This document shows positions 24,001-30,000 of a stretch of DNA of 64,000 bases, piece after piece. Positions within the stretch are counted from its first letter, which is position 1. Every line of letters starts with the position of its first letter. This DNA is from Escherichia coli. GTDB lineage: Bacteria > Pseudomonadota > Gammaproteobacteria > Enterobacterales > Enterobacteriaceae. The stretch lies in NCBI RefSeq assembly GCF_045037415.1, contig NZ_CP173438.1; one strand, 5' to 3'. Made by a program: the position numbers.

Positions 24001-27000
24001 CATAAAAAATTAATATTTTAGAGAATAGTGCCATTTTTTATGTTCTTCTTATCCTTCCTGGCTACTTGTAAAACTGACGGAAATAGTCATCAACTGTCAT
24101 AATGCTGAGGTCAAAATCAATATCCGGTAAGTCTAAGCATTTGAGCCTGATTAAATCTTCGATTTCACTTGCGGCTAACGATGTCGTTATTGCGAAGGAG
24201 TTTTCATTCAATTGTCGTGGTATCCCATATTCATCAGCCACGATAGAGGAGAAATTCATATCATACATCAATGATCTTAACCTTAAGAACACTGAGGAAT
24301 AAGATGATGGATAATCAAAAGAAACAACATAAGTATTGAACTTGTTTTTACCTTCCATAATATGACTCCTATCAATATTGAACGCTCTGGGGACGCAAAA
24401 CTTATTAACCCCGAATGATGATTCTCATATAGGAGATATTCTTTTTTTTTTGCTCAGTAAAGGGGATGACTTGGGACAAAAAAACGCTCTCTCTGACCAT
24501 TCTTTGTGCATCTCCTACCCTTCAGATGCTCTCCTGCATCACACCGCGGAGAGCATGAAAAATATCGTGACTCTGTACTCTCCCATCAACTGCGAATATC
24601 ATCATACTCCCGTGTTTTATCAAATTCGTGTTTCGCAAATGGGCATAGTGGGATAATTTTTCGTTTTTCCCGACGCATTTTTTCCACGACTTTCGCAACC
24701 AGCTGTTTACCAATCCCTTGTCCTTTCAGGCTTTCATCGACATCGGTATGTTCGATAATCGCTAAATTCTCTCCGGTCGGCACAAAGACAATTTCAGCGA
24801 TTTGCTTGCCCTGTTCGTCATTAATGTAAAATTTATTGTGGCCTTCGCGTATTTCCATTTTACCCTCGCTTATTTATGACGGTATTTCAGCGCACCGCTC
24901 GGGCACGTACGTTTGAGGTTAAATAACTTGCCGTTACCACGTACGCAATTGCCAGAATTTGTAGTGATGCGATGGGCACCACTTTCCAGGGTAGTCAGAG
25001 CCATACCTTTACTAGCTGCATTAACCCGGGAGTAACATCACTACAGGCCCCTCTTCAGGGGCCTCTCCTTGTCAGAACATATACCGGAAATTCGCGTTTA
25101 TTGCGTTATCCACGTTGTATTTACCAAAGGCGGATTTCTCAAACTCCAGACCAAAGCGCATGTTGTCCTTTATCTGTGCGTTCATGCCAACATTGAACAA
25201 CATCCTGCTGTCTTTCTCCCCTTTGATCCGTTTCTCTCCGGATGCATCACGAAGAACTGTCTCGCCATTATTCAGCAGGTCAAACTGCCAGCTGGTTCCG
25301 GCACGGGCTGTCACACTCCAGTCCTTACCCCTGAAGGTTTTGCCCAGCTCAATCCCTGTTCTGCCAATCAACGGGCTGAAATCCTTGTTCTTCATACTCA
25401 GGTCCATCTCACCGTCTTTCCAGCGGAATGTTTTCCCGGACACTGCGCCGTAAACCAGTTCGGCCTGAGGCTCAATAAATGTGTCTTCCGTCAGGTGATA
25501 ACGGTAACCCGTTTCCGCTCCGGCATACCAGGAGTGGGTTCCGTAGTGCTTCGTCCCCAGACCGGCAAAGTTACCTGTGTAGTCATTGTCATGGTGAATA
25601 TATTTACCAATCAAATCAATGTAGGCACCGGAGTTAAACAGTGCTGAAGCATACAGACCTCCCCCCACGGATTTTGTCTTCCCGCTGAACGCATCACTGT
25701 CTGCACTGCTGTCGGTATAGGTCATCGTGACACCGGTGAACAGGTCAACACCGTCCAGCGCATGTTTTTTGTCAAAACCGACCTGAACGTGGGTGTAGTT
25801 ATCACTGTATCCGCCATCGGCTGAACCGGCGCCGTTCATAATACGGGCCCAGGCACCGGCATCACCGTTCGTGTCACGCAGCTCCCCCATACGTTTGTTC
25901 AGATTGTTTACTTCCGTCATAAAGCTTTTGTAGCCGGCATTCATGAAACTGTTCGCCTTCGCTGCAGCCGCTTTATCAGCTTCCGTCCTGAAACCATCCA
26001 GAATCCACTTCGTACTGCCGCCAGTGGTGTCAACACGCAGCGTCGGCGTCACACGACTGAAGCCTGTCACCCGGGTGCCGGCCTTAAAGATATCCCCTGA
26101 TGTTCCGGCCGGTGCACTGACCAGCGGGATATTCAGGGACTGTCCCGGAGACGGGTTCTTCATAAAGCTGACATTCAGGGTGTTGTCTGAACCGCTGGCT
26201 TTCTCCGTAATACTGATTTTATCAGCGTCCTTCAGATCAGTGCGCAGGACAAAATCACTGCCCGTGGCATCAAGTGTCTTAACCGTCAGGGTACGGAAGG
26301 CACCGTTTTCTTCAGACTGTACCCGGCTGTTACGGGTCGTCAGACTGTTGATGTCGGAATCTCCGGTCAGCTGCCACAGGCCATTATTCATACTGACGTT
26401 CCCCTTACCGCCGGTGATGGCACCGTAGTACGCCGCGTTATATCCGCTGAACAACCCGGCAGCCAGAACAGGGGAGACAGAAGAGGAAACTGAGCCAGGG
26501 TTTTCGGAGCCAATACGAATGCTGGATGAACTGGTTGCATGAACATCCCCGGAAACATGCGCCTGCTGGCTGATGTTCAGCGTAGCGTTATCACCGGTTA
26601 AATCATAGCCTTCTGTCATGTATGTCAGTACGGGCATCCAGGTATTATCAGCGCCATTTTCCGGCGTGCCGCTCAGGGAAAGCGTACCTTTCTTTCCAAT
26701 CTGAACCCGGCCGTTACTGTAGAGCCCTTTTTGTGCCGTCAGATGACCGCCGTCACGGACAGAAAGGGTGGAATTCACGAAAACACCACTGTTCTGCAGC
26801 AGGGCATCCGGTGAGGTGACGTTTACCTTACTGTCATGGGCTTCAATACCGCCAATGAACCGGTTGTTGATGTCCAGCGTGGAGCCTTTTTGCAGTGTAA
26901 TTTTGCCTGTATAGCTGCTACTGCCATCATCTGCTGAGCGTCCTTCACGAACGTCCTGGCGGAAGCCAAAACCATTACCGGTGATATTGATGCCATCATA

Positions 27001-30000
27001 CATATCAATGAACACCGGAACGTCGCCCCCCAGTTTCAGCGTTGAATTCGATGCGACAATATCACCCTCAACAACTGAGTTACGTGCAGTTGTGAATTCT
27101 GAGTTTTCCAGATTCAGAGTCTTAAATCGGAAATGCCGGGTTTCCCAGTCAGGTTGGTCAAAAGAAGCCACCTGATTATTTGTTTTATAGGCACTGTTAT
27201 TTTTCTTATTTGCCTCACTTTCCAGTCTGGCAAAATCAGTAACATAATCTTTGTCACAAAGAACTCCGGGGACATAGCAGTGCCGAGGCCCCTCGCGGAA
27301 TATTGCATGTGATGTGGCATGCCCCTGAAGTCTGAGCTGGGAATTCCGCACAGTAATGTCATTGCGTGTATTAATGTTTCCATCAATAATCAGACTGCTG
27401 TCAGCACTTTTCTGTGTCCCAGTGTGTTCGATATTCGTATTTCCCGTGATACTACCGTGATAGACATAGCGGGAGGGGTTTTGTAGGGAAAGGGTCGCTG
27501 TTTTATCAGAAGTATTGGTGATAATGGTACCAACATCAGTTGCCGCGATCTTCTTGAACGACTGGCTGAACCCGTTTAAATCCAGAGTCCCCCCACGACT
27601 AGTAAAATAAATACCTCTGTAATCACTATTTTTATCCAGCGCATCGGCCTGCCCCAGTTTGACCGTTCCACGGCCACTGGCAACATAGATAGCATTGAAA
27701 GCCTTTTCTGCATTAAGAAAAACGGTACCGTCACCTGTTTTCAGGTTATTCCCCTGGGCCACATTGACATTCAGTGTCCCGGCCCCTGTTTTGTGCAGGT
27801 TATCGTTTGCCTCCCCTTTTACCGACCAGTCGACAACCGTATCTTTTCCGATCTCAACACCCGCCCCTTTATAGGCTTTATCTTTCCCAATAACCGAATA
27901 ATGTTGTCCCTCATCAAAAATCAATCCTCCGGTTCCTGAGTTCAGGTTATCGGTGAGCTCAATGCTCCCGCCACCATGGAATTTCAAATCTTTATTTTTA
28001 TTACTCTTGGTCAGTTCAATAGCAGTTATTTTATCGTTAATGGCAATATTTTTATTATTAACTGTCATTTTCTGACCATTGAGGTTCACCTCTTGGGTAA
28101 AAGTATTTTTCAGGATATCGACAGTGTTCTGATCATATCGAGCAAAAAAGGCCCAGGTATCCTTACTGGAGAATACTTTACCTGTCAGTGTCCCCAAAAT
28201 GACCCATTTTTTTTTCTGATTATCATACAAGTAAAATCCGGAACCGCTGTCACCTCCTGTCACTTCATTATAAAACCCACCGGTATTATTACTTGCATAC
28301 ATATTGTTCCAGTTTAACTGAAACATGGAGGCACTACGTAATAATGGATTGTATGTCTGTCCCACCCCATAAGATGTAACACCGGTTGCACCAGCTCCAA
28401 CGCGGAAACCGATTATTTGTTTCTTTCCATTGAATTCAATACCATAACGCTCTAGTGCTTCTGCTGCTGATAAGTTGAAATCAGCATGCTCTGTTGCACC
28501 CGCTGTTTCAACAACAAACTTATCCAGACGCTGGACCGCAAAGTCACCTTTGGTCACACGATCAACATAATGATAATCTGACTGTCCCCATGTCTGAGTT
28601 TTAATGGCATGGTGAATAGTGCCATTATGACTTGCTGTAACACTGTAGGCATTACCAATAGCAGTTGTTGCACCTTTAGCGGATACAGGAGAAAAATCAG
28701 GGATTGTTACTTCAGGAAAACTGAATTCTCCCCCATTTTTTAATGGCGTTTTTACCCCGTATGCTCCGGGCTGAAATGCACCTTTATTCTGTGCCAGATC
28801 AAGATAATCACGGATCCAGAAATTTCGGGTGTCCATCTGTGCTGCACAGGCATATTCAGCCGCACCATAAGACAAGGCAGAAACTATAAATATAGCGAGA
28901 AGTTTTCGACCGGTTTTAGAGGATACTCGGGATGCTAATTCTGATACAGCTATAAGCCCTTGAGTAAGGTGACAATACTTAAGTGAATATATTCTGTTCA
29001 CGGGTAAGACTCCATAACGTTTATAACATAATACAAACCAATAGAACTATGTTTTTATTAATAAAAAGCTTCCAATTACCTTTATTAATTGCAGTTTAAC
29101 CCCCCCCCCACGTCTGTAAAAAATACATCTACAATATAGATTTTATAGCAGTGTGTTTAGCATATTTACATTGCATTAATTAAATTGCATTGCGCCGCCA
29201 AAGGTTATTTAGAATATAATAACGACTCCATACCCACATTGCATAATGAAGGGTAAAGCTACAAAAATAAAATCATGAAATAAACAAAAGCATATGACGT
29301 TTAAGTGTTTTTATATTTATTGTTTTTTATTTTATATCATTATGCGGCGGAATTCTTCATTTATTCCGCGCGTTAACATTATTGTATCGTATTTTTTTAT
29401 TTTTTTTTGGAAAACAATAATGTTTTTAACATGTGGATGTTTTTATATTCGAAGATTAATTGAGCACATGGGTAAATAATTCGTTATTATTTGAGTAATT
29501 CTCTAAATATGTAGATAATGGCGAGTTAACGTATCACCTGACACACTTCTCTCCGAAATTAAGAAGTATTTGACTCATCAAGCCAATAAATGTGTATAGA
29601 ATGATTATACGGGATAGTTACAAGTTCACCGATACGGTGCAGGACTCAATGGCGATGTCGGTGGGAGCGTTTGTGTCACGATATGATGGACGTCCCTTCT
29701 TAATGCAGTCAGTGCCATACTTTTACTGACTGCATTAATCCGAGAGTAACATCCCATGAACACGATCAGGATTGTTGGTATCGATATTGCCAGGCCTGTT
29801 TTTCAGGCCTATATCTGGATTAATGATGATTCTGTTGCATAGGATAGAAACACCTCATGCTCCAAATTGCAGGATATCGTTCAACGATTCGAGTCCGGAA
29901 CACTATTCGCTATGGAGGCATGTTCAACTTCTCATTCTGGGGGATGAACGTTCAGTTCTATGGAATATCCCCTGACTATTCCCTGCACAACAGCATCATT

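Follow-up and report, generated by a model that had tools for sequence, protein, structure and literature searches.

What are the two short, related sequences that lie on either side of an autotransporter gene in a virulence island of Escherichia coli? They occur in a 64-kb stretch of contig NZ_CP173438.1 (hereafter the window), where a first-pass annotation had described them as paired ~50-bp elements that share a palindrome and a downstream GC-rich hairpin, and had suggested that they are relics of the element that delivered the gene, recombination sites, or a small structured RNA. We conclude, with high confidence, that the two repeats are left ends of a ~1.35-kb insertion sequence (IS) of the IS1111 subgroup of the IS110 family, and that each decayed independently of the other.

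A repeat search of the window, complemented by direct reading of the repeat region, identified a direct-orientation pair at 24966–25039 and 29680–29753 (74 nt, 76% identical). The full repeats extend over 24960–25041 and 29674–29755 at 75–76% identity, and no match of this kind is expected by chance. A 40-nt degenerate consensus of the shared core has two sites in the window and none in 100 shuffles, so the repeat is real. Its size had been underestimated, however: each copy is ~82 nt long, and homology to the IS covers 24960–25041 and 29680–29992. RefSeq places no mobile-element feature on either copy, and a partial yjdI coding sequence overlaps the first bases of copy 1.

Identity of the repeats

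Both copies align end to end with the ~80 nt directly 5′ of the ATG of an intact 344-aa transposase. Intact IS110-family transposase genes with the matching upstream segment are present in Klebsiella aerogenes, Rahnella, Buttiauxella, Trabulsiella, and Serratia, under the generic source name 'IS110 family transposase' throughout. In an alignment of the DNA upstream of such genes with both copies and two other E. coli relics, the common segment starts sharply at TGTAGTGATGTGATGGACGCCCC and ends at the ATG, which identifies the repeat as the left end of an IS. When the intact K. aerogenes IS was compared to the whole window by blastn, it matched only 29680–29992 (77% over 315 nt, E = 3e-64) and 24960–25041, the latter corresponding to IS positions 2–82 (84% identity, E = 1e-18). 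The copies are 75% identical to each other, but share 81% (copy 1) and 89% (copy 2) of their bases with the left end from K. aerogenes; being nearer to the intact left end than to each other, they decayed independently from a K. aerogenes-like ancestor. Neither blastn nor tblastn with the intact IS detected a right end, a guide-RNA region, or an intact transposase in the window, and thus both copies are immobile relics.

Copy 2 continues into a dead gene. The open reading frame (ORF) at 29756, noted earlier as a 29-codon ORF, exists as 28 codons plus a stop (29756–29842), but it is only the beginning of a longer remnant: past its end the frame stays IS110-transposase-like through two stops (...VGIDIARPVFQ...FESGTLFAMEACSTSH...). 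The 86-aa conceptual product matches NCBIfam NF033542, 'IS110 family RNA-guided transposase' (E = 3e-5; residues 6–67, profile 1–68), and tblastn finds the window translation 60.6% identical to residues 1–71 of the intact K. aerogenes protein (E = 9e-23), with no other significant piece of transposase in the window. These matches bear out the earlier reading of the VGIDIA motif as a vestigial transposase start; the family guess was right, and the element is more exactly of IS1111 type. A complete 330–350-aa transposase with PF02371 is missing, as copy 2 retains ~79 codons interrupted by two stops and copy 1 retains none. The 7-nt left terminal extension is kept in both copies. Only the left subterminal inverted repeat (sTIR) occurs in the window, with 10 of 11 bases conserved in copy 2 and 8 of 11 in copy 1; the right one is absent. 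The locus holds no new RNA or recombination system; it is ordinary mobile-element debris. Its features, from the island edge through copy 1 to the end of copy 2, are as follows (IR, inverted repeat).

24870–24958, minus strand: 3′ remnant of yjdI that lacks 57 internal nt (RefSeq partial coding sequence; homology to full yjdI ends at 24958)
24960–24964, plus strand: TGTAG, the outermost bases of an IS3-family IR and left half of the target (from the split right IR of K. aerogenes and left-end alignments)
24965–25041, plus strand: copy 1, left-end relic only (blastn to the K. aerogenes IS, alignments)
24965–24971, plus strand: terminal extension of copy 1, TGATGCG
24972–24982, plus strand: degenerate sTIR of copy 1, ATGGGCACCAC, 8/11
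24986–25024: decayed hairpin of copy 1
25028–25032, plus strand: Shine-Dalgarno sequence of copy 1, GGGAG
25045–25064, no strand assigned: GC-rich hairpin AGGCCCCT-CTTC-AGGGGCCT, −15.4 kcal/mol, beyond the homology to the intact element
29674–29678, plus strand: TGTCA, degenerate IS3-type IR tip left of copy 2 (left-end alignment; TTTCG in the ortholog of E. coli E69)
29679–29755, plus strand: copy 2 left end, 89% identical to that of K. aerogenes
between the tip (ends at 29678) and the sTIR (starts at 29686), plus strand: extension of copy 2, CGATATG
29686–29696, plus strand: sTIR of copy 2, ATGGACGTCCC, 10/11
29700–29713 and 29725–29738: perfect 14-bp palindrome of copy 2 (also found as an inverted repeat by the repeat search)
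29742–29746, plus strand: Shine-Dalgarno sequence of copy 2, GAGAG
29756 to ~29992, plus strand: DEDD transposase pseudogene, N-terminal ~79 codons from the ATG at 29756 (translation, NF033542, blastn/tblastn)
29840–29842 and 29945–29947, plus strand: in-frame stops of the pseudogene
29792–29810, no strand assigned: hairpin AGGCCTG-TTTTT-CAGGCCT inside dead transposase codons 13–19

The homology of copy 1 stops at 25041, exactly where the ATG is expected. Copy 2 is located between the upstream region of the autotransporter gene and the 3′ end of an AraC-family gene. From the end of its transposase homology to the stop codon of that gene (29993–30156) runs an AT-rich stretch of ~160 nt, which carries no recognised feature and is conserved in E. 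coli E69.

Architecture and target of the intact relatives

Intact relatives were collected by tblastn against plasmids; those examined come from K. aerogenes pYD-K10_1 and Rahnella aceris, and Serratia and Yersinia ruckeri contributed fragments. The K. aerogenes element occupies about 52535–53883 of NZ_CP142847.1, reverse strand. Scanning 100,044 genomes, one for each species, with a pattern for further left ends returned 18 of this type in Enterobacterales-type sequence, five of them with intact 344-aa genes. An intact relative scores 334.8 bits against NF033542 (cutoff 140), and database relatives of the intact protein carry PF01548 and PF02371. In the intact element the left end is followed by the gene for the 344-aa DEDD transposase, then by ~245 nt of non-coding sequence, and finally by the right subterminal repeat. 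The left end measures ~77 nt from terminus to ATG and comprises a 7-nt extension, the 11-bp sTIR, an imperfect stem-loop, GGGAG, and the ATG. The 11-bp sTIRs, ATGGACGCCCC on the left and GGGGCGTCCAT on the right (also given as GGACGCCCC/GGGGCGTCC), lie a few bases inside each end. Comparison of K. aerogenes with Rahnella reveals long invariant runs in the ~245 nt 3′ of the transposase gene, whereas the coding region differs throughout. The IS1111 subgroup is defined by 11–13-bp subterminal IRs, 7- and 3-nt terminal extensions, transposases of 330–350 aa, a range that includes the 344 aa found here, and a downstream non-coding region encoding a seekRNA (Siddiquee et al., 2024, PMC11187229). The intact relatives show the IRs, extensions, transposase length, and conserved downstream region expected on this definition.

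In K. aerogenes the host of the element is an IS3-family element, whose right IR it interrupts. The left IR of this host, which is uninterrupted, reads TGTAGTGGCACAG... (longer form TGTAGTGGCACAGTAAATTTGGCCAC), and the interrupted right IR reads TGTAG/(IS)/TGGTCAAG... (longer form TGTAG/(IS)/TGGTCAAGTAATATTGGCCAC). The left terminal extension is accordingly 7 nt long and the right one 3 nt, in agreement with the IS1111 rule: TGTAG/TGATGTG-sTIR...sTIR-ATA/TGGTCAAG versus the uninterrupted TGTAGTGGCAC..., with the cut position ambiguous by 2 nt because TG is repeated at both junctions. Given the uninterrupted IR and the 7/3 extension rule, an alternative assignment of TGTAGTG as the IS terminus was dropped. 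TGTAG or a one- or two-base variant precedes most of the 27 aligned left ends, and the left flanks beyond it are unrelated. Likewise, all seven two-ended copies with a readable right flank occupy the same position in an IS3-type IR, with unrelated DNA beyond. Insertion in the relatives is thus specific for site and orientation and leaves no target duplication; copy 1 keeps the TGTAG half-site.

Short segments of the conserved downstream region match the flanks of the copies that carry them:

GTTGACC: matches right flank GGTCAAC (K. aerogenes, Rahnella, and a third relic in E69, locus L019)
CTTAACC: matches right flank GGTTAAG (Trabulsiella)
GTGATCC: matches right flank GGATCAC or GGATCAG (Buttiauxella)
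TGTAGTGAT: matches the left flank and first IS bases (most copies)
AGTAATGAT: carries a change matching that in its own left flank (Trabulsiella)

The region with the covarying segments lies at about 3536–3773 of the K. aerogenes locus (L005) and is present also in L006, L014, L019, L024, L025, and L046. In the relatives a top-strand match is followed by a bottom-strand match, the order reported for IS1111 seekRNAs (PMC11187229). This covariation between guide segments and flanks supports RNA-guided targeting by an RNA whose production we infer from sequence. The relics belong to an Enterobacterales clade whose covariation, seen in copies outside the window, would constitute a small natural example of seekRNA reprogramming directed at the tips of IS3-family IRs. 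Another segment of the RNA region, ATATATGGTC, matches the right end and flank in some copies; it does not covary in Trabulsiella or Buttiauxella.

Family membership and folding suggest how such an element may operate. Judging from its homologues, ISEc11 among other IS1111 members, it would encode a seekRNA in the downstream region. Two short segments of this RNA would match the sequences that flank the insertion point in the target, the outer tip of an IS3-family IR. The element would excise as a circle and insert site-specifically without target duplication; excision of IS1111 elements requires both ends, target-like flanks, and the downstream RNA (PMC11187229). In the predicted circle, TA of the right end and TGAT of the left end would create a TATGAT −10 box 17 nt after a TTG-type −35 (TTGCAT) in the right end. 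This putative junction promoter, analogous to that of ISEc11, may bypass a translation block at the left end. The window copies are immobile scars of old nested IS insertions that later suffered deletions.

Among the closest characterised systems is ISEc11, an IS1111-family element of E. coli and Shigella and an experimentally studied seekRNA-guided element (PMC11187229). It shares with the intact relatives a short left end, a ~340-aa DEDD transposase, a long downstream non-coding region, ~11-bp subterminal IRs, 7/3-nt extensions, top- then bottom-strand target matches, and a predicted −35/−10 pair across the circle junction (PMC11187229). ISEc11, however, targets GTGAAAATACTG, whereas the relatives target IS3-family IR tips; the window copies are dead fragments, and the likeness described here is one of organisation. 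As far as the title of Partridge & Hall (2003), cited in PMC11187229, conveys, the element described there resembles this clade in lifestyle: it appears to insert site-specifically, in one orientation, a few bases inside the terminal IR of a host element, which is a Tn3-family transposon instead of an IS3-family IS. ISEc21 (IS110 family), a DEDD element with RNA guidance, likewise lives as a parasite of IS3-family elements (PMC11187229), but its non-coding region is upstream and it targets a conserved DDE-coding site of IS3-family transposase genes, whereas the clade described here has a downstream region, subterminal repeats, and an IR-tip target. IS621 (IS110 group) belongs to the same DEDD recombinase superfamily, shares the NCBIfam model name, and chooses its target by RNA guidance; its bridge RNA, a structured RNA of ~150–200 nt with target- and donor-binding loops, comes from a long left end 5′ of the gene. 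The ~77-nt left end and downstream conserved region found here argue that the window repeats are not bridge-RNA genes, and Rfam 15 yielded no match above chance in 24300–30500 of the window or in the intact element.

The pattern scan also recovered an IS1111-type family in Sphingomonadales with a 332-aa transposase (MQMLAIDLGK...; L012, L015, L021, L027, L035, L036, L038, L041, L042, L048, and others), which is unrelated to the enterobacterial type. It has a ATGGACGCC subterminal repeat and a ...GGAGTTCATCACATG start region in common with the enterobacterial clade; its left end measures 67 nt by the same criterion and also seems to contain a small stem-loop.

Hairpins, folding, and rival explanations

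The palindrome attributed to both copies is real in copy 2, where as RNA it folds with −20 kcal/mol (z = −8.2). Its left arm has degenerated in copy 1, and there the corresponding stretch folds no better than shuffles (z = +0.3). A left-end stem-loop is a feature of the whole family, usually a 9-bp stem and often with a central mismatch; among the 27 aligned left ends only copy 2 and its E69 ortholog have the perfect 14-bp form. Intact left ends are predicted to fold closed (z = −4.9, −4.6, and −2.7): the terminus AUGUGAUG forms a helix with CAUCACAU at the start codon, and the GGG of the ribosome-binding site is paired to CCC. The modelled fold suggests the classic IS device in which sequestering these two signals could keep read-through transcripts from being translated. 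Copy 2 retains only the central hairpin of this fold, and copy 1 none of it (z = +0.9 and +0.3).

The two GC-rich hairpins that had been regarded as paired downstream parts of the repeats are neither homologous to each other nor parts of the element. The hairpin at 25045–25064 is not covered by the repeat; it follows the autotransporter stop codon (25072–25074) at a distance of 7 nt and from this position is probably a 3′ stem-loop of the autotransporter transcript, maybe a stabilising one. The hairpin at 29792–29810 has a weaker stem elsewhere (AAATCTG...CAGGTCT in intact relatives, AAGCCTG...CAGGTCT in E69); judged by these sequences, it is lineage-specific and no family feature. A consensus terminator scan called neither hairpin, and no T-run follows either one on either strand.

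Several observations weigh against our identification or limit it. The assignment of an IS3-family tip is weaker for copy 2 than for copy 1, with three of five bases matching TGTAG and four of seven matching the TGTAGTG heptamer. A count of pairs across 25 distinct left ends gives 83.4% paired versus 82.8% in shuffles, and just three pairs have both partners changed, a number that shuffles reach as well; the structural role of the hairpin and of the helix between terminus and start codon is therefore unproven. The unusually perfect palindrome of copy 2, together with a GC hairpin that arose by three substitutions, could hint at secondary selection, although chance in a pseudogene is the simpler reading of both. 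The identification draws on sequence comparison. IS1328 of Yersinia enterocolitica is a possible relative; a literature search on it was uninformative.

Could the SPATE-like gene have been delivered by a composite or translocatable unit whose ends are the two copies, or through the copies as recombination sites? They do bracket the autotransporter gene, called SPATE-1 in the first-pass annotation, in direct orientation, and copy 1 lies exactly at the junction of island and core. Yet homologous recombination is poorly served by 74 nt at 76% identity. Both copies are left ends, and the window lacks the right end, guide-RNA region, and transposase; of these, an excising IS1111 element needs the first two, along with its left end and target-like flanks (PMC11187229). 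At 75% mutual identity, with each copy nearer to intact elements, they do not form a recent pair, and the arrangement is fixed in lineages that have diverged by ~8%. We therefore regard a role in delivery as very unlikely; mobile DNA shaped the island to the extent that the repeats are relics and copy 1 marks the island/core junction.

Equally improbable is a small structured RNA or a cis-regulatory hairpin co-opted for the autotransporter and AraC-family genes. The copy 2 hairpin is very stable (z = −8.2) and more perfect than in all aligned members except the E69 ortholog, a second perfect 7-bp GC stem arose in dead coding sequence, and the relic lies between the AraC-family gene and the autotransporter upstream region. 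Against this, an Rfam scan of 24300–30500 at E ≤ 10 gave chance-level matches only, none of them on the repeats, and Rfam 15 gave no relevant match above chance in the intact element. With the fold gone from copy 1, the pair shows no conserved structure. The E69 ortholog does not conserve the GC stem, neither hairpin is followed by a T-run, and family-wide covariation is absent. A dispersed intergenic family of the REP/BIME/ERIC kind, unrelated to mobile DNA, would also be short, palindrome-containing, and free of mobile-element annotation in RefSeq; its probability is close to nil, as ST131-type chromosomes have just two such places, the left ends recovered from Enterobacterales genomes lead directly into an IS110-family transposase ORF or what remains of one, and homology starts sharply at a defined element terminus.

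Within our reading of the repeats as decayed IS1111-type left ends, the relic in copy 2 may have gained a secondary role in cis in the ST131-type lineage, between the AraC-family gene and the autotransporter promoter region, for instance as an insulator, a protein-binding site, or an RNA-processing site. We give this little credence; if true, selection would explain the perfect 14-bp stem and the second perfect 7-bp GC stem.

Genomic setting, age, and spread

The genes around the two relics and on the far side of the island are:

24586–24858, minus strand: yjdJ (RefSeq)
24870–24968, minus strand: partial yjdI (RefSeq)
25072–29001, minus strand: 1309-aa S6-type (SPATE-like) autotransporter (ORF; TIGR01414 barrel; Pfam ESPR, Peptidase_S6, PIC/HAP1 solenoid)
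30157–30987, minus strand: AraC-family regulator (RefSeq)
31885–35697, minus strand: S6 peptidase (RefSeq)
36098–39949, plus strand: hypothetical protein, fimbrial chaperone, and usher (RefSeq)
40059–40331, minus strand: second GNAT/yjdJ copy (RefSeq)
40343–40573, minus strand: complete yjdI (RefSeq)

Copy 1 is fused through its TGTAG tip to the truncated yjdI, for which the complete yjdI at 40343–40573 served as reference. The left edge of the autotransporter/SPATE island (24959) is thus an IS-made junction inside yjdI. Two unannotated stretches are thereby explained, which helps annotation and reconstruction of island assembly and reveals no new biology. On either side of the 15.1-kb island (24959–40058) stands core DNA in direct repeat, made up of yjdJ and the 3′ part of yjdI, at 24586–24958 and 40059–40488 (324 nt at 98.8% and 49 nt at 95.9% identity); the left copy lacks 57 nt that are kept in E69. 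Such a direct repeat suggests homologous (Campbell-type) integration or a duplication rather than simple insertion. The Pfam ESPR, Peptidase_S6 (E = 2e-20), and PIC/HAP1 solenoid matches of the 1309-aa protein indicate a divergent SPATE-like protein, for which 'SPATE' is a fair label; RefSeq names it only as an autotransporter barrel protein.

The 6-kb stretch that holds both relics is 100% identical in many E. coli chromosomes, including several O25b:H4-ST131 records, and at least 80% of the arrangement is present in 604 of 5,426 complete E. coli genomes. The same 5,426 genomes contain fragments of the IS and no full-length copy. In E. coli E69, an orthologous island ~92% identical over 9 kb carries both relics with the same junctions, which argues that they are old and fixed. 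E69 also has a two-ended, internally deleted IS copy (L019, 650–1700) with sTIRs ~1,016 nt apart and an ORF of 44 codons, inserted in an IS3-type IR (GTCAACAAAAACTGACCAC); this copy indicates that the element once moved within E. coli.

Other parts of the IS occur on plasmids. A 157-nt fragment of the right end and guide-RNA region (query 1200–1356, ~88% identical) is found on many E. coli plasmids, often near ~3.9 kb, and is a widespread fixed relic. For all parts of the IS together, 871 plasmid places were counted, and ~1,000 plasmid records in a Klebsiella-dominated set match some part at 95–99%.

Other E. coli chromosomes hold further left-end relics (L002, 4001–4118; L003, 4001–4063), each with a frameshifted tyrosine-integrase pseudogene whose 3′ end is 70–190 nt away. 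One of these relics belongs to a prophage-like region, and the other neighbours a BREX system. The proximity of E. coli relics to integrase pseudogenes had prompted the idea that the repeat is coding on the minus strand, where both window copies read CYSR(V/I)NA..SK.MALT; alignment to the non-coding left end of the IS ruled this out.

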